A DNA stretch of 64,000 bases. Source: a plasmid. Position 1 is the stretch's first letter; the number at the start of each line of letters is the position of its first letter. The stretch lies in sequence record CP113993.1; one strand, given 5' to 3'. The translations under genes were made by a program, and so were the position numbers. The notes beneath the pieces are model-generated. The model was not told where the DNA came from. It was given only the letters and a program-made list of their open reading frames with translations, and searched no databases. Shown piece by piece: positions 12,093 to 46,535 of this stretch.

Positions 12093-14114
12093 ATGAAAAT
12101 GACACGGCTTTATCCTCTGGCCTTGGGGGGATTATTGCTCCCCGCCATTGCTAATGCCCAGACTTCACAGCAAGACGAAAGCACGCTGGTGGTTACCGCC
12201 AGTAAACAATCTTCCCGCTCGGCATCAGCCAACAATGTCTCGTTTACCGTTGTCAGCGCGCCGGAGTTAAGCGACGCCGGCGTTACCGCCAGCGACAAAC
12301 TCCCCAAAGTCTTGCCTGGGCTCAATATTGAAAATAGCGGCAACATGCTTTTTTCGACAATCTCGCTACGCGGCGTCTCTTCGGCGCAGGACTTCTATAA
12401 CCCCGCCGTCACCCTGTATGTCGATGGCGTCCCTCAGCTTTCTACCAACACCATCCAGGCGCTTACCGATGTGCAAAGCGTGGAGTTGCTGCGTGGCCCA
12501 CAGGGAACGTTATATGGCAAAAGCGCTCAGGGCGGGATCATCAACATCGTCACCCGGCAGCCGGACAACACGCCGCGCGGCTATATTGAAGGCGGCGTCA
12601 GCAGCCGCGACAGTTATCGAAGTAAACTCAACCTGAGCGGCCCCATTCAGGATGGCCTGCTGTACGGCAGCGTCACCCTGTTACGCCAGGTTGATGACGG
12701 CGACATGATTAACCCCGCGACAGGAAGCGATGATTTAGGCGGCACCCGCGCCAGCATAGGGAATGTGAAACTGCGTCTGGCGCCGGACGATCAGCCCTGG
12801 GAAATAGGCTTTGCCGCCTCACGCGAATGTACCCGTGCCACCCAGGACGCCTATGTGGGATGGAATGATATTAAGGGCCGTAAGCTGTCGATCAGCGATG
12901 GTTTACCAGACCCGTACATGCGGCGCTGCACTGACAGTCAGACCCTGAGTGGGAAATACACCACCGACGACTGGGTTTTCAACCTGATCAGCGCCTGGCA
13001 GCAGCAGCATTATTCGCGCACCTTCCCTTCCGGTTCGTTAATCGTCAATATGCCTCAGCGCTGGAATCAGGATGTCCAGGAGCTGCGCGCCGCAACCCTG
13101 GGCGATGCGCGTACCGTTGATATGGTGTTTGGCCTCTATCGCCAGAACACGCGCGAGCAAATGCAGGCAACTTACGACATGCCTACCATGCGTTATCTGA
13201 CCAGCGCCGGCTATACCACCGCTGAAACGCTGGCCGCATACAGTGACCTGACCTGGCATTTAACCGATCGTTTTGATATCGGCGGCGGCGTGCGCTTCTC
13301 GCATGATAAATCCAGTACACAATATCACGGCAGCATGCGCGGCAATCCGTTTGGCGACCAGGGTAAGAGCAATGACGATCAGGTGCTCGGACAGCTATCC
13401 GCAGGCTATATGCTGACCGACGACTGGAGAGTGTATACCCGTGTGGCCCAGGGATATAAACCTTCCGGGTACAACATCGTGCCTACTGCGGGTCTTGATG
13501 CCAAACCGTTCGTCGCCGAGAAATCCATCAACTATGAACTTGGCACTCGCTACGAAACCGCTGACGTCACGCTGCAAGCCGCGACGTTTTATACCCACAC
13601 CAAAGACATGCAGCTCTACTCTGGTCCGGTCGGGATGCAGACATTAAGCAATGCGGGTAAAGCCGACGCCACCGGCGTTGAGCTTGAAGCGAAATGGCGG
13701 TTTGCGCCAGGCTGGTCATGGGATATCAATGGCAACGTGATCCGTTCCGAATTCACCAATGACAGTGAGTTGTATCACGGCAACCGGGTGCCGTTCGTAC
13801 CTCGTTATGGCGCGGGAAGCAGCGTGAACGGCGTGATTGATACGCGCTATGGCGCACTGATGCCCCGACTGGCGGTTAATCTGGTCGGGCCGCATTATTT
13901 CGATGGCGACAACCAGTTACGGCAAGGCACCTATGCCACCCTGGACAGCAGCCTGGGCTGGCAGGCGACTGAACGGATGAACATTTCCGTCTATGTCGAT
14001 AACCTGTTCGACCGTCGTTACCGTACCTATGGCTACATGAACGGCAGCAGCGCCGTCGCGCAGGTCAATATGGGGCGCACCGTCGGTATCAATACGCGAA
14101 TTGATTTCTTCTGA
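12093..14114 (+). CDS. fyuA: TonB-dependent yersiniabactin/pesticin outer-membrane receptor FyuA/Psn, 673 aa
   Basis: Signal peptide MKMTRLYPLALGGLLLPAIANA, TonB box, and a C-terminal beta-barrel ending in F. The 673-aa length matches FyuA. Confidence 0.95.
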   Translation: MKMTRLYPLALGGLLLPAIANAQTSQQDESTLVVTASKQSSRSASANNVSFTVVSAPELSDAGVTASDKLPKVLPGLNIENSGNMLFSTISLRGVSSAQDFYNPAVTLYVDGVPQLSTNTIQALTDVQSVELLRGPQGTLYGKSAQGGIINIVTRQPDNTPRGYIEGGVSSRDSYRSKLNLSGPIQDGLLYGSVTLLRQVDDGDMINPATGSDDLGGTRASIGNVKLRLAPDDQPWEIGFAASRECTRATQDAYVGWNDIKGRKLSISDGLPDPYMRRCTDSQTLSGKYTTDDWVFNLISAWQQQHYSRTFPSGSLIVNMPQRWNQDVQELRAATLGDARTVDMVFGLYRQNTREQMQATYDMPTMRYLTSAGYTTAETLAAYSDLTWHLTDRFDIGGGVRFSHDKSSTQYHGSMRGNPFGDQGKSNDDQVLGQLSAGYMLTDDWRVYTRVAQGYKPSGYNIVPTAGLDAKPFVAEKSINYELGTRYETADVTLQAATFYTHTKDMQLYSGPVGMQTLSNAGKADATGVELEAKWRFAPGWSWDINGNVIRSEFTNDSELYHGNRVPFVPRYGAGSSVNGVIDTRYGALMPRLAVNLVGPHYFDGDNQLRQGTYATLDSSLGWQATERMNISVYVDNLFDRRYRTYGYMNGSSAVAQVNMGRTVGINTRIDFF

Positions 14115-14401
14115 CTCTTTAATAAATATCCTCCGTTGATGCCTGAGAATATTTATTTCCAGACCCGGGCCCCCATAAAGGACTCTGAAGTGTCTGTTAA
14201 CCCCGTGGTGATTCACTTCTGGCTTTTCTGCCTTATATCCCCGCCCGCACTGGGCGAGGGTTTACGGCGGTTTTTGCTAAAAGCCGGTTTAGCTGGTGGC
14301 ATTCGCCAGATATCAGACCTGCTATTCAATAAATTCCGGCCTAACGTGTACCATTCCGGATATGGTTCTGGATCCCCCGTGGAAAGCTCTACGGAAGTGA
14401 G

Positions 14402-14449
14402 GCAGGCCACAGGTGGAAAAATTCCGTAATTTATTCACCTGTGGCCTGC
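14402..14449. terminator. Perfect 14-bp inverted repeat (gcaggccacaggtg / cacctgtggcctgc) immediately 3' of the amidase stop codon
   Basis: Stem-loop directly abuts the TAA stop of the minus-strand amidase. It lies between the convergent fyuA and amidase genes. Confidence 0.55.
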
Positions 14450-15238
14450 TTAAATTGCAGGAATATAATTACTTCCCGGGAAATATTTATCCACTAACGC
14501 ATAAAGAATTGCCGTTGTTTCAGCGTCAACGACACCATCATAATTCTTTTGTCGGAAGTGAAGCTGAAATGTACGGATTAAATTCTTGTATCCGATTTCT
14601 GTTCCAGCATCTGAGATGTCGTATCCGTACGCTTTTAACTTAGCAACAATATCTGCTTTAGATGGTAAAGACTTGCTGAACTGCGTCAGATAGTGTTGCA
14701 TGATCGATTCCTCATACCATGCACCGATACCAGCGTCGTAAAGTTCTTTCCACGGGAAAGCCGCTCCAGGATCACTTTTTCTTCCCGGGGCAATATCGCT
14801 GTGTCCGACAACATTCACAGGCGTAATATCAGGATATCGTTGCAGAATATTGGCGGCCAGCTCCTTGATTGCATCAATCTGGACCGGGTTATAGGGAGGA
14901 AAGACAAACACGCCGTTGTTATCACAGGCCAGGTTAACCGTCTCAATCCCAATGGCAGTATCATTCAGGTTGCTGCGTCCGGCCCATGAACTTACTCCAG
15001 CATGCCAGGCTCGCTCATTTTCATCAACCAGGTTGAATATACGCATATCCTTAAAACCTGCATCAATATACGTTTTTTCTGATGGATCAGGAATAAGATA
15101 GTGAGCGCTTACCGAAGGCCCGGTCAAAGCGGTAATTGACGCCTTAAAATCAAGAGCAGTATAGTGCATAACAAGGAAGCGAACACGATGATTGAAACCT
15201 TTTATCGCGCGATAGCTATTATAATCAACAGTATACAT
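14450..15238 (-). CDS. N-acetylmuramoyl-L-alanine amidase (Amidase_2 / PGRP fold) with a C-terminal peptidoglycan-binding domain; AmiD-like or endolysin-like
   Basis: MHYTA...AHYLIP...AWHAG...GHSDIAPGRKSDPG is typical of AmpD/AmiD/T7-lysozyme-type zinc amidases. The C-terminal LKAYGYDISDAGTEIGYKNLIRTFQLHFRQKNYDGVVDAETTAILYAL matches the PG_binding_1 pattern. No obvious signal peptide. Confidence 0.8.
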   Translation of the reverse strand: MYTVDYNSYRAIKGFNHRVRFLVMHYTALDFKASITALTGPSVSAHYLIPDPSEKTYIDAGFKDMRIFNLVDENERAWHAGVSSWAGRSNLNDTAIGIETVNLACDNNGVFVFPPYNPVQIDAIKELAANILQRYPDITPVNVVGHSDIAPGRKSDPGAAFPWKELYDAGIGAWYEESIMQHYLTQFSKSLPSKADIVAKLKAYGYDISDAGTEIGYKNLIRTFQLHFRQKNYDGVVDAETTAILYALVDKYFPGSNYIPAI

Positions 15239-15736
15239 TGAAACCTCCTTATGTTGTTAAACTATCAATACCGGGATGTATGACAACAAGATGTATACAA
15301 AGAAGAGACACGCGTAGCTCTGAAAATTTTTGTTGAAGTGATTCATAATTGTTGTTCAGGTGAAAATCACTGCGCATCTACGGTTACAGTTGACCACCCT
15401 GCCCGTTACTGTTTTACCTTAAGATTTTCATTTTCAATTATTGTAGTTTTGTGAAAATGACAGTATCAGTTCTTCAATCATGGCATACAGATCGAGTTCT
15501 TTTTCAGAATAAAAATGCCATCAGGCTATGGGAGACATTCGCCTGAGTGGGGGCAGCCTCCTGGTATTAACAGTTTCGGAAACCACGACAGCAAGGTGAA
15601 GTGACTAATAATGCTGAGCAGTCGCCCACACTGATTTCTAATTTCCGGCTCAATATGGATCTGGCCTGTCAGCTCTTTTTTCCATCAACAACGCAGGGGA
15701 TTATCGTTAACCGACATCCCCTGATAACTTTAGTTA

Positions 15737-15994
15737 TTAGAATGAAGGACCATGCCATTCCGTCATAGGTTGATTCCAGTTTGGTTTTGGAATTAATGGC
15801 TCACTGATATTGTGTGCTTTAGGGTCGAGTTTACTTGGGTCTTTACCATTATTATGACCACAGGCAGGGACGCCCAAAATAGAGTCTATTGCACATCCTG
15901 CTTTTGCTCCTAGCTCTCCACTTGTATAGCCACCATAGTCACCGAATCCCGCACCACTGACATTAATAATTTCATTTTCAGATAATGATTTCAT
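15737..15994 (-). CDS. Class-II-microcin-like precursor with a double-glycine-type leader (85 aa; predicted 70-aa Gly-rich mature peptide with 2 Cys)
   Basis: Leader MKSLSENEIINVSGA fits the consensus L(-12), E(-8), I(-7), V(-4), G(-2), A(-1). Mature part GFGDYGGYTSGELGAKAGCAIDSILGVPACG... is Gly-rich with a Cys-x10-Cys pair. Confidence 0.65.
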   Translation of the reverse strand: MKSLSENEIINVSGAGFGDYGGYTSGELGAKAGCAIDSILGVPACGHNNGKDPSKLDPKAHNISEPLIPKPNWNQPMTEWHGPSF

Positions 15995-16439
15995 ATTCCA
16001 ATACCTTTAAGAGATGTTTTCGATCTTCATTGAAGTCCCGGCTAATATTAGCCTTTTTAAATGGGATGAAAAGCTTTATTTCATAAACAATAACACACTA
16101 AAAGTAAAAATATCTTCTGGAAGTAATTATATTCTTTTATATTCACTGTACTATTTTTAATATATGTTTATTTTTTAAAAGCAAAGCTCTAAACCACCAT
16201 AGTGGAATTTAACTAAGTAAATCTGGTAGTTAACCCCTGCTGGATAATTATCCTAATTGTTTATCATACCATCATTAAAGTAACTGTATTTTCTTTCATA
16301 ATATTACATAGTCTTACAATCAGTGCTAACATTGATAGAGAGGTTGTTAGCGGGTACCTCCAAATTTTTACGATACTTATTATACGACTGGTGTAAGGCT
16401 TATAACTGCGTCAGCCCTTCAATCATGGTGTCAGAATCA

Positions 16440-16683
16440 ACTTTTCCCGTTCCGGAAAACCAACAGATAATCCATATATTGAGTCATTTAACGGCAGTCT
16501 GCGGGATGAATGCCTGAACCTGCACTGGTTCCTGTCGCTGAAAGATGTACAGGACAAACCCGATAAGTGGCGCAGGGAATATCATCATGAGAGGACGTAT
16601 TCATCCCTGAATAACATGACTCCGGCTGAATTCATCCAAAGTCTCCGAAACCTTTCCGGAAGTAGAAAAAGAAAAATCCTGTA
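16440..16683 (+). pseudogene. Remnant of an IS3-family (IS407-group) orfB C-terminus
   Basis: Frame encodes [57 protein letters not shown]. This is nearly identical to the C-terminus of the intact orfB at 29368-30177. Confidence 0.8.
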
Positions 16684-16821
16684 AACACACAGACGGGCTG
16701 TTACGCGTATGGAAGCTTTTTTGTGCTGTCAATCTGGAAAGTTTGTTGCCAGTTGGTAATTTTCCTGACGCACTGAAAGTACAGTATTACATAACTGAAT
16801 GATATATCTGTTTTATTTTTC

Positions 16822-16836
16822 TGGCACAACAATTGC
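16822..16836 (+). promoter_or_regulatory. Sigma-54 (-24/-12) promoter TGGCAC-N5-TTGCT upstream of megL
   Basis: Exact GG-N10-GC spacing. It sits about 43 bp upstream of the megL ATG, with the RBS AGGAG in between. A sigma-54 enhancer-binding protein gene lies at the 3' end of the operon. Confidence 0.7.
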
Positions 16837-16848
16837 TACGTTTCATGA

Positions 16849-18075
<1,227 letters not shown>

Positions 18076-18188
18076 CGATGTGGCGGTGAACTGCTGTTAC
18101 CGGTTCACCACATCAGGTATCCAGACTACGCCTGGCTACAGGCGTAATACATCATCGAAAAGCTTCGCTTATTTTTGCAGGGGGCTCT

Positions 18189-19487
18189 ATGCAGGACGAC
18201 ACATTACAATTAAATAACAGTAAAGCAACGACCACACCGCTTTCAACGAGATTACCGTTTACAAAATATGATTTTGGCTGGGTGCTCTTGTGTATCGGTA
18301 TGGCGATCGGCGCCGGTACCGTATTAATGCCTGTGCAAATCGGTCTCAAGGGGATCTGGGTATTTATTACCGCTTTTATCATCGCCTATCCCGCTACCTA
18401 TATTGTGCAGGATATTTATCTAAAAACGTTGTCTGAAAGCGAAACCTGTGACGATTATACAGATATTATCAGTCACTACCTGGGCAAAAACTGGGGCGTT
18501 TTCCTCGGTGTAATCTATTTTCTTATGATTATCCACGGGGTGTTTATTTACTCCCTGTCGGTTGTGTTTGATAGCGCCTCCTATATAAAAACCTTCGGCC
18601 TTACTGAGGCCGATCTTTCGCAGTCTATTATCTATAAAGTCGCGATTTTCGCCGTGCTGGTCGCGATTGCCTCCGGCGGGGAAAAGCTATTATTTAAAAT
18701 TTCAGGCCCGATGGTAGTGGTGAAAGTCGGGATCATTCTGATATTCGGTTTTGCGATGATCCCACACTGGAACCTTGATAATATTTCCGCCTTTCCCGCC
18801 GCATCGGTTTTCTTTCGCGACGTACTGCTCACTATCCCATTCTGCTTCTTTTCTGCGGTCTTCATTCAGGTGCTAAACCCAATGAACATCGCCTATCGTA
18901 AGCGCGAGCCTGACCGTGTGCTGGCCACCCGGATGGCGATTCGCACGCACCGCATTAGCTATATTACGCTGATTGCCATTATTCTCTTTTTCTCGTTCTC
19001 GTTTACCTTTTCGATTAGCCATGAAGAAGCGGTATCAGCGTTCGAGCAGAATATTTCCGCCCTTGCGCTGGCAGCTCAGGTGATTCCTGGCCAGATAATC
19101 CACATTACCTCTACCATTCTCAATATTTTTGCCGTACTTACCGCGTTCTTTGGTATTTATTTAGGATTTCACGAAGCGCTTAAAGGTATTGTACTGAATG
19201 TATTGAGTCGTATTATGGATGTCAAAAACGTCAACTCACTGCTACTGACATCTGGAATCTGTGTCTTTATCGTGGTTACTCTGGTCATTTGGGTTTCGTT
19301 TCGCGTCTCTGTGCTGGTCTTTTTCCAGTTAGGCAGTCCGCTTTATGGCATTGTCGCGTGTATTATTCCCTTTTTCCTGATTTATAAAGTAACGCAACTG
19401 GAAAAATTACGTGGCCTGAAAACCTGGTTAATACTGCTGTACGGGATTCTGCTGTGCCTCTCACCGTTATTAAAACTGATTGAATAA
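18189..19487 (+). CDS. Amino-acid permease of the HAAAP (SdaC/TdcC/Mtr-like) family, probable methionine importer paired with MegL
   Basis: 432 aa and polytopic. N-terminal [18 protein letters not shown] parallels the SdaC motif WMLGLYGTAIGAGVLFLP. Co-directional, 113 bp after megL. Confidence 0.75.
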
Positions 19488-19515
19488 CCACGGTGTACGC
19501 CGAAACCTATGGCTT

Positions 19516-20730
19516 TCAACACGATGTCATAATCTTATAGCGCCGTATTTTATTCAGAACAGTGGTATGTGATACACCTAGCGCTTTAGCAATACGGCGC
19601 GATGATATTTTATCCTCCACCATCTGCTTGATCATTCGCCGCTCAGCATATTGAGCCAGTTCTCTAAAAGGATACCCGGCATTGTCCTGAATAACCGGGA
19701 ATGTCTCAGCGGCTGGTATCAGCAGCCCCAACTCATCCGCCGTAATTACATCGCTTTCGGACATCAGCATAAGACGAATGATCATATTTTCCAGCTCACG
19801 GACGTTTCCCGGCCAGGAATAGTAGTACAATATCTCAAAACATATTTTATCCAAAATCAAACGTCGATTAAATTCTTTTGCATATTTTTGGATAAAATAG
19901 CGGATCAACAACGTAACATCTTGTGGTCGTTCCCGCAATGGTGGAATCATCAGAGTAAGCACATTAATACGATAATAGAGATCGGCGCGAAGCAGGCGTT
20001 GTTCAAGCAGCTCTTCCAGGCTGGCGTTTGTCGCTACAATAATCCGTGTATTAACAGGGATAATCTGCGAACCTCCAACCCGGCGAATGCCGTCATCCTG
20101 CAAGACACGTAATAACTTAGCCTGAACATTCAGTGGTATTTCGCCAAATTCATCAAGAAACAGAGTGCCGTTATCTGCCATCTCAAATAAGCCTTTTTTT
20201 CCTTTACCATCCGCGCCGCTGAATGTGCCTTTTTCATAGCCAAAGAGCTCACTCTCTATAAGCGATTCCGGTAACGCTGAACAGTTTACCGGAATAAAAG
20301 GATATAATCGTCGAGCTCCGGCATTATGGATGGCACGTGCCAACAGCTCTTTTCCTGTCCCGGTTTCGCCGCGGATTAGCACCGTATATTTACTGTCTGC
20401 AATCTTTACCGCTTTTTCTGTGAGCGATTGCATACTTCGGCTGCTGTAGACGATATCAGAAAATGAACGTGACTCCGTGAATGCCGGGGGCGACATATTA
20501 CTCATGTCTTCAGTTAGATAAAAAACATCAGAAATATCCGCATGACGATGTAATTTCAGATACACAGAAGATATATCATGTAAATGTTGACACCATGATT
20601 TAATCAAAACTCGCCCCGTCGCCACTTTCATTGAGATGATATTCATATTACATTCTGAGAATTCCTTCAGAACATCCTCAACCATTGATATTCGATCAAT
20701 TGTTTTAATATCCCAGCGTATAGTGGCCAC
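19516..20730 (-). CDS. Sigma-54-dependent transcriptional activator (ACT-like N-terminus, AAA+ sigma-54 interaction domain, C-terminal HTH)
   Basis: GETGTGKE Walker A and [15 protein letters not shown] (GAFTGA-like). C-terminal [24 protein letters not shown]. Convergent with the permease. Confidence 0.85.
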
Positions 20731-30780: not shown

Positions 30781-31539
30781 TCAGAAGTTTTCTATAAATT
30801 CATTAATTGATACAGGTCGCCCAAAAACATAACCCTGGAGATAATGGATACCAACGTCTTTTAAATAGTCAGCTTGCTCGAATGTCTCAACGCCTTCTGC
30901 TATAAATTTTAATTTTAATTTCCTTCCTAGGGATATTATATTACTGATAATAAATTCCGTATTTTCATCAATGCCAATCTTGTGTACAAATATCTGGTCA
31001 ATTTTAATGAAATCCACAGGGAACTGCTGCAGATATACATAAGATGAATATCCCGTTCCAAAATCGTCGAGAGATATTTTTATACCATGGGCTCGCAATC
31101 TCTTTATGTTTTCTTCTTCATTCTTACTATAGAGCACTTTTTCTCTTTCTGTAATTTCCAGAATAAGAATCATTTTCTTTTCAGGAAATCCGTTCATAAA
31201 ATTGATACATTTGCTTATAAAAGCACTATTGTTTAAAAGGCCGGGATTAATGTTAATAGCAATGTGGAATTTATAACATATTTTCTTATTAATGAATAAA
31301 GGTAACATTTTATCCATAATGTCTTCCAGTAAATCACACGTCATTCTGATAATAAGACCAGTGCACTCTGCTTCCTGAAGAAATTTTTCTGGTGTCAGAA
31401 TTTCCTTATCACTTTTCCTCCATCGCATTAATACCTCCCCACCAATAAGCCGTTCCGTTTCAGCATCAACAACAGGTTGTATATAGGGTATAAACTGTTT
31501 TTCCATTATCCCCTGCAAGATATTTACTTGAGAGTTCAT
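30781..31539 (-). CDS. Stand-alone EAL-domain protein (predicted c-di-GMP phosphodiesterase)
   Basis: EIT(E)R in the EAL position, DDFGTGYSS, EGVETFEQ and QGYVFGRP motifs. 252 aa with no GGDEF or sensor domain. Lies directly downstream of the autotransporter on the same strand. Confidence 0.8.
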   Translation of the reverse strand: MNSQVNILQGIMEKQFIPYIQPVVDAETERLIGGEVLMRWRKSDKEILTPEKFLQEAECTGLIIRMTCDLLEDIMDKMLPLFINKKICYKFHIAININPGLLNNSAFISKCINFMNGFPEKKMILILEITEREKVLYSKNEEENIKRLRAHGIKISLDDFGTGYSSYVYLQQFPVDFIKIDQIFVHKIGIDENTEFIISNIISLGRKLKLKFIAEGVETFEQADYLKDVGIHYLQGYVFGRPVSINEFIENF

Positions 31540-31655: not shown

Positions 31656-34600
31656 TTAGAAACTGTAACGAATTCCAATATTAAAATCTTGTCCATCAAA
31701 GCCAAAACCATTAATTCTTTGATAAGACGAGAGTTCACCATACAGCGAAAGATCTGGACTTAACATTCCACTGGCTCCGATTACAGTATTAAATTTCCCA
31801 CCATTTTTCCCTGTTTTAAAACTGACCCCTTCAATTTTCACATTTTTCGAATTACTGAAATCATTAATAACATCCGCTCTGAAATACGGCTTCCAGCTTT
31901 CTGTACCAGGCACAAGATAAGACAATTTAAATCCTGCTCGTCCTATAATTGGATGTTGGTTATTGATGTCCACACTAAGATCATTATCATCAACAACCTT
32001 ATTTATATATAAGTTTCTGGATATAAGCTGAACTTGTGGCTCAATTTCTAATGAGTTAACAAGATCAAACCTCTTACCAAACTCTATAGATAAATCAAAA
32101 CTATCAGCTTTAACCCGAGAAATTTTTTCTCGATTATTGTAGATATGTCCATTATATAGCCCATATGATAACACTCCGTCAATATAATAATCATTTACAT
32201 TAATTAGCGTACCAGTCAACGAAAAAGTATTGGCATTGACAACCATATAACTGGATTCTTGACTGGAATTTGTAACGTTAGTTCTACTGTCTCCAAATGT
32301 ATAATTCGCTCCTAAAAATACCTTATTATTACCATAATCAAATGCCGTCCAGTTTGTACCTATAGACATGGCATTATTTTTTTGCTTAAAATCATATCCA
32401 TAGTTATCTAAATCCAGATTACTTTTGTAACTGTCTGAACTCGTAATAAATCTATAATAGAAATCAAAATCTTTGATCTGCTTATTATTATTTTTAGAAT
32501 AAATATCCCCCAGTCGGCGATCTATATTGTCCAGAACAAAGTTACTGTAATTGCTAAGTGCTGCTGGTAAACTTAAATATGAGCTTGCTTGCCTGACTAT
32601 GAGCGGGCGTGATTTCCTCTCCCCCGTATTTCCATTCCCTGTACCATTCCCTGTACCATTTCCTGTACCATTTCCTGTACCATTTCCTGTACCATTTCCT
32701 GTACCATTTCCTGTACCATTTCCTGTACCATTTCCTGTACCATTTCCCGTACCATTTCCATTCCCTGTACCATTATCATTCCCTGTGCCATTACCGTTTT
32801 CATTGTTTGAATTATTATAATCAGGATCAACTCCTGGCACCACATTTCCAGAGCTATCCAGATATGCGGTTTGTAGTCTAAAATCTACATTTACAGGCTT
32901 ATCCCCCAGAAAATTACTTTGTTGATCGACCTGATCGCCTCTATATGTAAAAAGCCTGTACTGATAAGGGCTTTTAGTCCCGGTGGATATATACTCACGA
33001 TCTAACTTAAATGCATTATCTGCTGCATCGCCCCCAACCTGAACTAAAGAAATACCATCCCTGCTGCTAAAAATATTACCAGGAGCAGATGCTGTATTAT
33101 CTCCGTTACCTTGCGGAACTACTTTGAGTACAGTTTCACCAGAGACATTACCCTTAATAAGAACTTTATCACTGAGCTGCTGATCTTTATCTCCGCCCTT
33201 ATTCAGAACAGTATTTAAAGTTATAGTACCATTTCCTCCACTATAATCACCTTTAATATTTAAGTTATTAAATTCACTTTTATTAAGTGGTGAAAAAATA
33301 ATATTCCCGCTATTTCTAACATTGTCAACATCTGTACGTTGAGATATCACCCAATTACTGGAGTTATTCATCAGGTTTAAGTTAATAGTAGATTCGTCAG
33401 ATTTATGCATGTTACTGGCTAACGTCGTATTGTCGCCTGCATTGATATTAAGAATACTATTCTTACCCTCAACAAGAATTGGCATATCGGTGTACTGATT
33501 TCTTAACGACAAAGTTGATTGAACATTGTCAGACAATCTCATACCATTGCCTGAGGATTTAATACTTACATTGTCCAGATTTATCGTACTATCCCCAGTG
33601 ATATAGATTAAATCATTTTTTGCAGAAACGTCCCCTCCAATTATGTTTAATACGCCATTATTAACATTCAACAAGGCATCTTGCTTTTCCGAGTTCATAT
33701 TCAAATTGATAAGTGTTAATGCGCCATTCATTAAACTTATCTCACTTGCATCACCGCCATTCCTAACAATCAACTCACCCTCTCCACTCTTGGTAAATTT
33801 GTAATCCCCGGTGTGAATTTTATTCCAAGAAGAACTCATGTCCTTATCGACAGAGATGTCACCATCAGCATTAAAATATACATCCCTGTCTGATGCAAAT
33901 GAACCAAATATTTTTAGCCCTCCTCCATTCATTATTAAGTCAGAATTGTTTTTATTCCCCCCCCCGAGACTTTGGTCTGAATTAATCCGCAGATTCCCCT
34001 GATCAATCCGAGTGATTCCCTGGTATGAATTAATACCATCCAAAGTCATATCACCTTGTCCTTTCTTTATTAAAGAACCGTTACCACTAATTTCACCGGA
34101 AAAAACAGAGTCGGCCAGGCTGTTCACTGTCAGGAGCCGGTCACCGAGCACAACGTGGCTTCCTTCGTCACCCGTAAGATTGTTTACCATGGTGCCGTTG
34201 GTCGTCGCACTGATGTCTAACGTTGCATCCCTGTTAAGTCTGACATTTCCGCTTTTCTCAATGTTACTGTCACCAGACAGGGACAATTTACCGGCAGAAA
34301 CAGTTGTGTCGCCCGTGTAATTGTTCTGGCCTGCCAGTGTGAATGAGGCCGCCCCTGTCTTTAGCAGGCCTCCTGTTTCACCTTCAGCGCCGAATTCACC
34401 GGAAAAAACAGAGTCGGCCAGGCTGTTCACTGTCAGGAACCGGTCACCGAGCACAACGTGGCTTCCTTCGTCACCCGTAAGATTGTTTACCATGGTGCCG
34501 TTGGTCGTCGCACTGATGTCTAACGTTGCATCCCTGTTAAGTCTGACATTTCCGCTTTTCTCAATGTTACTGTCACCAGACAGGGACAATTTACCGGCAG

Positions 34601-44601: not shown

Positions 44602-45891
44602 CTACTTATTATCCTTAAAAAACTTAATTAATGGCTCAAGTAACCAAGTTATAAGCATTTTTCTGTCAAGAAGGATGTCAGCATGCACATGACTTCCTGA
44701 TGGTATTAAGTATAAATGTTGAGCATATACTACATCATTGCTGTCTGGCTGAATGGTGATTCGGTACATGGGTGAGCTGTATTTAAGACCATAACTTGAC
44801 TCTATTACACTGGGGTCTATCGGATACCTGCCAATATCCTTAATAATCCCTTGATAAACACCATATTTCTGAAATGGATAGCTATCATATTTTAAGGTCA
44901 CTCTTCCTCCACAAGTAACATCGGCTATAGATGAGCTATCCAGAAAGAGGTAAACAACCATTTCTCGTGTGTCAGGTATAATTGTTAAGATTTTTTCATG
45001 TGGAGAAACACTATCGCCATTCGTTTTAGTCAGGCCGGATACATATCCCTCCACAGGGGAAGTAATTACGTAGTACTGACTGTCAGACTCTGCACTTATT
45101 TTCTGGTTTAAATCATAAATTTGTTTTTTATATTGAGTCTGAGTCTGATTATAATCATCATATATTTTTAACTTTTTATTCAAAAGCAATAATATACTTT
45201 GCTCCTCTTCATTAATATTTTTTTTATAGTTTTCAGCCTGAATGGCAAGGTTAAAGTGATTTCTTGCTATATTATTCACCTCCATATCAGAAACAGCCCC
45301 CCCTGGATGTAATTTAATTATTTTATCATAAAACGGTTTTTCACGACGGATTTCATTCTCTGTTAATAAAAGAGTTCTTTCCAAAATAACAAGAGACTCC
45401 CGCCTCTTATTAAGCTCTTTATCAAGAATTAAAAGTTGTTCTTTTGTTGATTTATACTTAGACGATAACTCCTTCTCCAGGGCTTTTTTCTCTTTATTAA
45501 GTAACCCGATACCAATCTCTGTATACTGAATCCCAGAACTGTCTTTCATTACAGAGTTAATTGAAAATAATGCCTGATCTTTGTGTACATAGTCACCGTG
45601 GTGTACGTTAAGATTACTGATAACGCCCCCAGAAGCGGCATTTACTGTGGCCACTCCTTTTAATGGTATCGTAACACCAGTGACACTTACTCTTTCGGTG
45701 TACTTTAGCGTCATCATTATAAAAATGATTAGCAAGCATATTATTGCACACACAACAAACGCTACATGTGTTGATGGAACAGAAACCGGAGATATCGATT
45801 GTTGTTTATTTTTATACGCAACCGCCTCTTCCCTAAAAATACCCTTATACACTTGTAAATTCCTCATCATACTTGTAGCTTTTTGTTTCAT
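44602..45891 (-). CDS. HlyD-family membrane fusion protein (CvaA/MchE-like), 429 aa
   Basis: N-terminal single TM (FVVCAIICLLIIFIMMTL), a long coiled-coil middle and a C-terminal beta domain. Its stop lies 2 nt before the ABC exporter start (operon). Confidence 0.88.
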   Translation of the reverse strand: MKQKATSMMRNLQVYKGIFREEAVAYKNKQQSISPVSVPSTHVAFVVCAIICLLIIFIMMTLKYTERVSVTGVTIPLKGVATVNAASGGVISNLNVHHGDYVHKDQALFSINSVMKDSSGIQYTEIGIGLLNKEKKALEKELSSKYKSTKEQLLILDKELNKRRESLVILERTLLLTENEIRREKPFYDKIIKLHPGGAVSDMEVNNIARNHFNLAIQAENYKKNINEEEQSILLLLNKKLKIYDDYNQTQTQYKKQIYDLNQKISAESDSQYYVITSPVEGYVSGLTKTNGDSVSPHEKILTIIPDTREMVVYLFLDSSSIADVTCGGRVTLKYDSYPFQKYGVYQGIIKDIGRYPIDPSVIESSYGLKYSSPMYRITIQPDSNDVVYAQHLYLIPSGSHVHADILLDRKMLITWLLEPLIKFFKDNK

Positions 45892-45974: not shown

Positions 45975-46535
45975 ATGAAAAAATTAACCTCAATGGAATT
46001 AGATTTAATTGCAGGATCTGGTATCGGTCTTGGTGAAGCACTGGAAGATGTTGCTGAAGCAATTATTGAAATTGCACATGGCGGAGATGGTGGCGTAGCT
46101 CTTGGAGAAGCCTTGGATCATGCTCCAGCTGAACATGTAACTCACTCAGGAGTCACACATGATAAAGACATTTTAAATATTGACATGATATCTGCGAATA
46201 TGGATATGCATGATATTCTTTTCCATCACGGCAATTCAGTGGGTTTGCAGAAAGATTTGAATGCCCTTACTTCAGATCAACGTGTTCATTATGATGTTCA
46301 TCTGGGAGGATATCTGGCTGGCCCAGGAACATTATTTCATGATGATGTCCAGATAAAAAGAGACCCTGAAGTTTTAAATATTGATACTTATTCTGCAAAC
46401 CTTGATCGCAGCGAAATTTTATCCGGACATGCAACACCATCTGATCAGACTGACATTAATCAACTGGTTCATGATCACAGAACTCATTATGATGTCAAGG
46501 AGGGTAAATTTGTTGCCGGGCCTGGAGAAAGATAA
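45975..46535 (+). CDS. Double-glycine-leader secreted cargo protein (186 aa): 15-aa leader plus acidic, His-rich mature domain with two about 55-aa tandem repeats
   Basis: RBS GGAG sits 9 nt before the ATG at 45975. Leader MKKLTSMELDLIAGS fits L(-12), E(-8), L(-7), I(-4), G(-2), S(-1). Repeats ILNIDMISANMDMHDILFHHGNSVGLQKDLNALTSDQRVHYDVHLGGYLAGPG and VLNIDTYSANLDRSEILSGHATPSDQTDINQLVHDHRTHYDVKEGKFVAGPG. Divergent from the membrane-fusion-protein and ABC exporter operon, as in cvaAB versus cvaC. Confidence 0.75.
   Translation: MKKLTSMELDLIAGSGIGLGEALEDVAEAIIEIAHGGDGGVALGEALDHAPAEHVTHSGVTHDKDILNIDMISANMDMHDILFHHGNSVGLQKDLNALTSDQRVHYDVHLGGYLAGPGTLFHDDVQIKRDPEVLNIDTYSANLDRSEILSGHATPSDQTDINQLVHDHRTHYDVKEGKFVAGPGER

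Follow-up and report, generated by a model that had tools for sequence, protein, structure and literature searches.

Class IIa microcins, among them MccV, MccL, MccN, MccPDI and MccS, leave the cell by type I secretion through a peptidase-containing ATP-binding cassette (ABC) transporter (PCAT), a membrane fusion protein (MFP) and TolC. In their clusters, as at the MccL and MccPDI loci, the genes follow the order peptide, small protein, MFP and PCAT, and PCATs such as CvaAB take on foreign cargo provided that its leader is suitable. The release proteins of colicins are small lipoproteins whose genes lie downstream of the toxin gene and share its transcript; endolysins lie in holin/spanin cassettes. 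The locus considered here, on a stretch of 64,000 nucleotides (the window) from plasmid record CP113993.1, holds a gene for a short microcin-like precursor and, beside it on the same strand, a gene for an N-acetylmuramoyl-L-alanine amidase; both lie to the right of fyuA in the yersiniabactin (ybt) locus. The original prediction placed the two open reading frames (ORFs) and their common strand correctly, and proposed that the amidase serves the peptide as a lysis-type release factor or a peptidoglycan-targeting accessory. Instead, the locus probably consists of two independent single-gene cassettes set side by side in mosaic DNA, one for a cytoplasmic-type amidase and one for a microcin-like peptide exported by a PCAT. 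The window is DNA of a pESI-type (pESI-like) megaplasmid of Salmonella, not of an integrative island; the adjacency of the two genes is a juxtaposition specific to pESI, and there are many occurrences of either gene without its neighbour.

The boundaries of the two cassettes are visible at the DNA level. Homology to other genomes falls into two separate modules, at most 14433-15459 for the amidase and 15749-16110 for the peptide, separated by about 290 bp that include about 150 bp of DNA resembling the neighbourhood of a Tn3-family transposase gene. Because the homology modules are separate and transposon-like filler lies between them, the two genes are taken to be distinct cassettes joined by scar DNA. 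The filler finds its best likeness on Xenorhabdus nematophila plasmid II and is probably a relic of another mobile element. Between the genes themselves the gap is 498 bp, in which, as predicted, no ORF of 60 amino acids (aa) or more was found. The predicted stable hairpin 3' of the peptide gene is likewise present (z -2.3), but CGUUGUUGAUGG follows it in place of a U tract, and it was not among the terminators called by the scan. Scans for sigma-70 promoters and for terminators returned counts no higher than in shuffled sequence.

The two genes also have independent distributions. Amidase relatives of about 256 aa with 75-93% identity occur in Salmonella subspecies salamae, diarizonae, arizonae and houtenae, in Enterobacter, Erwinia and Edwardsiella, and further afield in Yersinia pestis, Y. 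pseudotuberculosis, Serratia, Xenorhabdus, Pseudomonas and Bartonella (often several copies). A peptide homolog, a PCAT, an MFP, fyuA or ybtE was present within 6 kb at none of 80 amidase loci in species-representative genomes, and the peptide homologs in turn are never adjacent to an amidase gene; the pair co-occurs on pESI-type plasmids only. The amidase contexts vary, from genes for type III secretion system (T3SS) effectors in S. salamae to cheZ and a YadA-like adhesin gene in Yersinia and chorismate mutase in Edwardsiella, and no neighbouring ORF conserved across genera was found among 88 amidase loci, a homolog of PA0808 not having been searched for. In S. enterica subsp. salamae, the AmpDh3-like gene sits in a region scarred by prophages, with an OspF/SpvC-family gene on one side and a gene for an NleG-family T3SS effector on the other. 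What does accompany the amidase gene is a 43-nucleotide block just upstream of its Shine-Dalgarno sequence, near-invariant in nine sequences from four genera; in some of the loci that share it, cassette homology extends to 15459. The block contains the palindrome TGTATACA and a TTGACA-like hexamer. Its near-invariance across four genera indicates, at the level of sequence, that the amidase gene travels with its own control region, and transcription probably starts from this conserved promoter region.

The amidase itself aligns as a full-length ortholog of Pseudomonas aeruginosa AmpDh3 (PA0807), not of AmiD. Its best match among solved structures is AmpDh3 (PDB 4bxd; E 9e-101, 60% identity, residues 1-252 to 1-253), with weaker matches to AmiD (1e-56), AmpDh2 (4e-48) and AmpD (7e-14). 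The two enzymes are of equal size, and the HYTA and GHSDIA.GRKSDPG zinc-site motifs are identical between them. Of the predicted architecture, Amidase_2 is confirmed (E 2e-26), while PG_binding_1 scores below threshold (E 0.005, 17.4 bits against a Pfam cut-off of 23); a C-terminal peptidoglycan-binding-like domain is nonetheless covered by the 4bxd alignment, which reaches residue 252. The predicted lack of an evident signal peptide holds up well: the ORF allows no upstream extension, its ATG follows an AAGGAGG Shine-Dalgarno sequence, the N-terminal 20 residues are hydrophilic (mean hydropathy -0.88), and residue 1 aligns with that of the signal-less AmpDh3. E. coli AmiD and P. aeruginosa AmpDh2 belong to the same two-domain fold family; unlike the plasmid enzyme, which is nearer AmpDh3, they are periplasmic outer-membrane lipoproteins with a lipoprotein signal peptide. 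The present gene departs from that of AmpDh3 in being plasmid-borne, in Salmonella and E. coli, and in having an Enterobacterales-specific upstream block with no evidence of an AlpA-type antitermination leader.

In P. aeruginosa, AmpDh3 resides mostly in the cytoplasmic fraction and is redundant with AmpD on anhMurNAc-peptides, according to a 2023 study (PMC9998450). By analogy, the plasmid amidase would be a zinc enzyme without export signal, most likely cytoplasmic, cleaving peptide stems off peptidoglycan fragments, and it is best read as an extra cytoplasmic muropeptide amidase. An earlier claim that AmpDh3 is an effector of the type VI secretion system is disputed by a study cited in PMC9998450, and no cross-genus neighbour would fit as an immunity partner; that reading of the plasmid amidase was set aside. 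The endolysin-like character originally ascribed to the enzyme does not survive comparison with phages, since no close relative exists among 50,697 phage records, where the best genuine matches share 43-46% identity and a single "phage" match at 94% is a 691-kb Salmonella houtenae contig filed among phages. An origin in a phage endolysin or lysis cassette was rejected on these matches, and no holin-like neighbour was found.

The peptide gene carries a different set of hallmarks. With its Gly-Ala end, the 15-residue leader MKSLSENEIINVSGA fits the pattern M-[KEQI]-x-[IL]-x9-G-[GAS], the definition of class II microcins and of their 15-18-aa double-glycine signal being taken from a 2021-22 UniProt screen (PMC12219008). 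Exactly two Met-started ORFs in the window match the strict pattern, as against none in 30 shuffles, so that chance does not explain the leader. It equals the MccV leader, MRTLTLNELDSVSGG, at 7 of 15 positions. Past the leader, the predicted mature peptide begins GFGDY, comprises 70 aa with two Cys, has a glycine-rich amphipathic N-terminal half and, at 7.35 kDa, falls within the ~5-10 kDa of mature class II microcins. AlphaFold2 applied to the peptide family (14 sequences) gave an unusable model, with a mean predicted local distance difference test score of 48. From these features, the peptide is best read as a candidate PCAT substrate of the class IIa-microcin type.

A chromosomal allele strengthens the case. 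This form, of 84 aa and 82% identity, is widespread in subspecies houtenae, arizonae, diarizonae and enterica. There the gene is followed by those for a YdcK-like protein (208/211 aa), an MFP (424 aa) and a PCAT (699 aa), in this order and without an amidase gene at all eight chromosomal loci listed, of 8 plus 18 similar places. The two alleles differ by a dS of about 1 and have a dN/dS, the ratio of nonsynonymous to synonymous substitution rates, of 0.107 (0.078 for the mature part, 0.30 for the leader); purifying selection thus marks the peptide ORF as a real gene. At the DNA level, pESI resembles the chromosomal locus over the coding sequence (15749-15997, 82%) and, more weakly, over about 115 bp upstream; downstream of the coding sequence there is no similarity. 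Promoter matches in the upstream region are weak (8/12), but one (TTxxCA-16-TAATAT) is positionally conserved in the chromosomal allele, and ORF, Shine-Dalgarno region and this promoter-like element are all intact on pESI. A scan for Fur boxes over 14100-16400 reached at best 13/19, a score found 30 times in the window, and offers no evidence for control by iron. At least 1000 contigs carry the exact 85-aa sequence, and a word-indexed search for it returned Salmonella sequences only.

Contrary to the original prediction that the peptide lacks a local exporter, the plasmid encodes an intact PCAT and MFP at 42497-45891, 26.5 kb from the peptide gene. The PCAT has 700 aa, with a Peptidase_C39 match of E 2e-36. 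Divergent from the MFP gene lies a second ORF with a double-glycine leader, MKKLTSMELDLIAGS, which agrees with the MccV leader at 7 of 15 positions, exactly the score of the peptide. The predicted mature part of this second cargo, at 171 aa (18.4 kDa, pI 4.8), exceeds the size of a microcin; it contains 15 His and two repeats, each of roughly 55 aa, and no Pfam family matches it. Among plasmid records, 105 hold the PCAT cluster at no less than 99% identity and 107, all from Salmonella, span 80% or more of its length, against 129 with the peptide/amidase stretch.

Taken together, these elements suggest how the peptide would leave the cell. A C39-peptidase ABC transporter would recognise the Gly-Ala leader and cut after Ala15, and a 70-aa product, probably with one disulfide, would leave through MFP and TolC. 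On pESI the export machine would be the pair at 42497-45891, serving its own 186-aa cargo as well. That this PCAT exports the 85-aa peptide we infer from leader similarity and from the tolerance of such exporters for heterologous cargo; cross-recognition has to be assumed, because the pESI exporter proteins are only 33% (PCAT) and 21-22% (MFP) identical to those of the chromosomal allele. Outside the cell, the mature peptide would most likely act as a competitor toxin resembling class IIa microcins.

Several observations weigh against this reading. The divergence between the pESI exporter and that of the chromosomal allele is itself one, and the PCAT cluster is absent from about 22 plasmids that retain the peptide gene, E. 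coli pH222-1 among them. A PCAT and an MFP nearby, as expected of a class II microcin, are thus found for the chromosomal allele, while for pESI the nearest pair is 26.5 kb off and of another lineage than the cognate one, and is missing on some plasmids. The Pfam family MccV matches the precursor at E 0.06 and 14.3 bits against a cut-off of 27, over the N-terminal 50 residues including the leader; since the mature part alone matches no Pfam family, this weak match is attributable to the leader, and the mature part has no detectable sequence similarity to class IIa microcins. No transmembrane immunity ORF was found flanking the pESI peptide gene, in the chromosomal cluster or beside the more distant relatives described below. 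The term microcin-like is accordingly earned through the leader and through the position of the chromosomal allele directly upstream of MFP and PCAT genes, but not through an immunity gene or a family match. The pESI plasmids are near-clonal, and an intact peptide ORF on them says little on current selection. Finally, with both genes on the same strand and a hairpin of non-canonical type between them, some read-through into the amidase gene is possible.

The more distant relatives of the peptide bear on what it does. Exhaustive HMMER searching, together with a profile search, recovered about 15 further clusters whose mature parts are 37-53% identical; conserved are GYTSGE-G, a pair of Cys spaced 11 residues apart and, at the C-terminus, WHGG[YF]. 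In all of them a typical Sec signal peptide replaces the double-glycine leader, as in MKKTLCLLSIALYLNSGQTYA followed by GFSSYPGYTSGEIG. The predicted signal-peptidase sites fall 0-2 residues from the predicted double-glycine cut, which lends independent support to cleavage after Ala15. In E. coli, Sec-type members are found either where pap/sfa-type fimbrial operons end, past papX-like and EAL genes, or close to fimbrial genes on an IncF plasmid; a metagenomic member lies directly behind genes for a MacA/MacB-like pump, beside a serine protease autotransporter of the Enterobacteriaceae (SPATE). By megablast, the E. coli homolog was found in 2 of 5426 complete genomes, a figure uninformative on prevalence. 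Tentatively, these sequences may form an undescribed family of secreted peptides of about 70 residues with one disulfide, carried on islands and plasmids of Enterobacteriaceae, in which export signals have been swapped: double-glycine leader and PCAT in Salmonella, Sec in E. coli and the metagenome. Members of both export types also share a family among the class II bacteriocins of Gram-positive bacteria, some with a double-glycine leader and a dedicated ABC exporter, others Sec-dependent, such as enterocin P. Those bacteriocins have proven activity; in the present family, the Sec-type members would still have to pass the outer membrane in an additional step, and one of them lies beside the MacAB-like pump. 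If antibacterial, they would be Sec-dependent microcin-like toxins, of which we know none described in Gram-negative bacteria.

Since these Sec-type relatives lack immunity genes and lie beside adhesin loci, it is a serious, if clearly less probable, alternative that the peptide is exported without being a bacteriocin, as one of a family of small one-disulfide secreted peptides with a signalling, adhesion-related or host-directed role. The chromosomal "immunity position", between peptide gene and MFP gene, fits this alternative too, in that it is filled by a soluble YdcK-like beta-solenoid protein with no transmembrane segment (maximum KD19 1.13). However, the chromosomal cluster has its genes in the order known from class IIa microcins, the peptide itself recalls these microcins in its two Cys and its glycine-rich amphipathic N-terminal half, and nothing positive speaks for any alternative activity.

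Less likely still is that the pESI gene is an orphan relic, torn from the four-gene chromosomal cluster and carried passively without productive export. The confinement of chromosomal homology to the coding sequence and its immediate upstream region would suit a relic, as would the transposon and insertion sequence (IS) scars on both sides, the divergent plasmid PCAT and the plasmids with no PCAT cluster at all; neither the cluster's MFP and PCAT genes nor its YdcK-like gene, or any relative of the latter, was found in the window. Yet the expression signals and the ORF are intact, the exact peptide recurs across the contigs counted above, its leader resembles that of MccV as closely as does the leader of the PCAT's own cargo, and exporters of this type accept foreign cargo with a suitable leader.

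Very improbable, finally, is the proposal that the amidase opens the producer's wall for a colicin-like lysis release of the peptide or aids its attack on target peptidoglycan: close spacing on one strand with no canonical terminator between, and the co-induction of ampDh3 with the alpBCDE self-lysis genes by the antiterminator AlpA in P. aeruginosa (PMC9998450), make a link to lysis conceivable, but the enzyme is AmpDh3-type with no close phage relatives, the genes belong to separate modules with their own upstream regions and filler between them, neither a holin nor another route to the wall exists for a signal-less enzyme nor any neighbour conserved across genera, and lysis would leave uncut a leader that calls for a C39 peptidase exporter, which the plasmid has. 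The likeness to colicin lysis genes and endolysins extends only to the idea of a wall-active function near a toxin gene; neither arrangement occurs here, the gene downstream encoding a 262-aa non-lipoprotein amidase, on which ground colicin-type release was rejected, and the amidase family being essentially absent from phage genomes. The original prediction had itself named a housekeeping AmiD ortholog at this locus in genomes lacking the peptide gene as evidence to the contrary; in substance this is what was found, in that the amidase occurs elsewhere without the peptide, but as an AmpDh3 ortholog and at other loci.

Release of a microcin by lysis would have amounted to a new mechanism; on the present evidence that claim is to be dropped. 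On the reading of two independent cassettes, pESI, which underlies the worldwide spread of multidrug-resistant S. Infantis, is left with a so far unannotated gene for a microcin-like peptide, with a PCAT/MFP exporter and with an 18-kDa second cargo of the double-glycine type. The pESI literature searched held nothing relevant on microcins or bacteriocins and mentioned neither the peptide gene nor the PCAT/MFP pair nor the second cargo; likewise, the peptide sequence was not found in the literature or in the supplements of the cinful paper searched. The peptide would be an unvalidated addition to the class II microcin-like, PCAT-exported peptides; the amidase is a new, plasmid-borne addition to a known enzyme family. 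If active, peptide, exporter and cargo would add interbacterial competition to the known fitness traits of pESI, and a peptide that is antibacterial and exported by the plasmid's own PCAT could aid the competitive success of emergent S. Infantis in poultry. The swap of Sec and double-glycine signals within one peptide family amounts to a natural experiment on the modularity of export signals. The features on which this account rests are collected in Table 1.

Table 1. Positions of the cassettes, their junctions and the export locus in the window
Feature	Position	Strand	Remarks
fyuA	12093..14114	+	Final gene of the ybt locus; high-pathogenicity island homology ends at its stop codon
Junction DNA	14115..14432		Neither ybt nor amidase cassette; holds short plasmid-repeated elements at ~14173-14280
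AmpDh3-type N-acetylmuramoyl-L-alanine amidase, 262 aa	14450..15238	-	Without signal peptide or lipobox; HYTA and GHSDIAPGRKSDPG motifs conserved
Promoter/operator-like block 5' of amidase gene	15260..15302	-	TTTGTATACAT..TTGxCATACAT..GGTAT; conserved in Salmonella subspecies, Enterobacter, Erwinia, Edwardsiella
Filler DNA	15540..15690		At most 87% identical to DNA beside a Tn3-family transposase gene of a Xenorhabdus plasmid; marks cassette junction
Hairpin CAGGGGAT...ATCCCCTG	15693..15722		15 nt past the peptide stop; not conserved in chromosomal allele
Microcin-like precursor, 85 aa	15737..15994	-	Leader MKSLSENEIINVSGA (15950-15994); predicted mature part 15740-15949
Region 5' of peptide gene	15995..16110	-	Alignable with chromosomal allele; TTTTCA-16-TAATAT (16072 to 16045)
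IS3-family transposase remnant	16445..16684	+	Edge of mosaic segment
PCAT	42497..44599	-	C39 domain, catalytic Cys in SECGQAC; ABC_membrane and ABC_tran; sole candidate exporter in window
HlyD-type MFP, PCAT partner, 429 aa	44602..45891	-	21-22% identical to the MFP of the chromosomal cluster
186-aa ORF with MccV-like leader MKKLTSMELDLIAGS	45975..46535	+	Divergent from MFP gene; sole other double-glycine-leader ORF in window

The surroundings of the two cassettes are mosaic. Over 14100-16900 the sequence is 100% identical to that of E. coli plasmid pH222-1 and of more than 120 plasmids of Salmonella enterica, 140-390 kb in size and of poultry and human origin. Because these matching records are the pESI-type megaplasmid family, the ybt locus is plasmid-borne and not part of an integrative element, and the island of integrative-element type that the original prediction assumed gives way to a pESI-like plasmid. 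Homology to the E. coli high-pathogenicity island, at 99% over the last 415 bp of fyuA, ends exactly at the stop codon at 14114, and the DNA to its right is unrelated mosaic. RefSeq records give the order there as amidase, "hypothetical protein" (the peptide), IS3 remnant, megL and more IS fragments.

Of the roughly 1100 enterobacterial plasmid records that match 14173-14280, many hold copies, 83-97% identical, of the elements in the junction DNA, which are about 45-65 bp long; such elements also occur on E. coli chromosomes, and one copy on a Salmonella virulence plasmid lies between a helix-turn-helix gene and spvD. Right after the IS3 remnant, 16858-20730 forms a small metabolic block of megL (methionine gamma-lyase), an aromatic amino-acid transporter gene and a gene for a regulator with a sigma-54-interaction domain. 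Further on, an EAL-domain gene at 30781-31539 precedes a segment (31656-39038) with an autotransporter-like ORF of 1781 aa, then a plasmid-borne NusG paralog and two CaiF/GrlA-family regulator genes. In databases, the pESI peptide is often recorded as "partial" (61-84 aa), because draft contigs end within or beside the gene, which suggests an assembly break point near 15994-16450, probably at a repeat.

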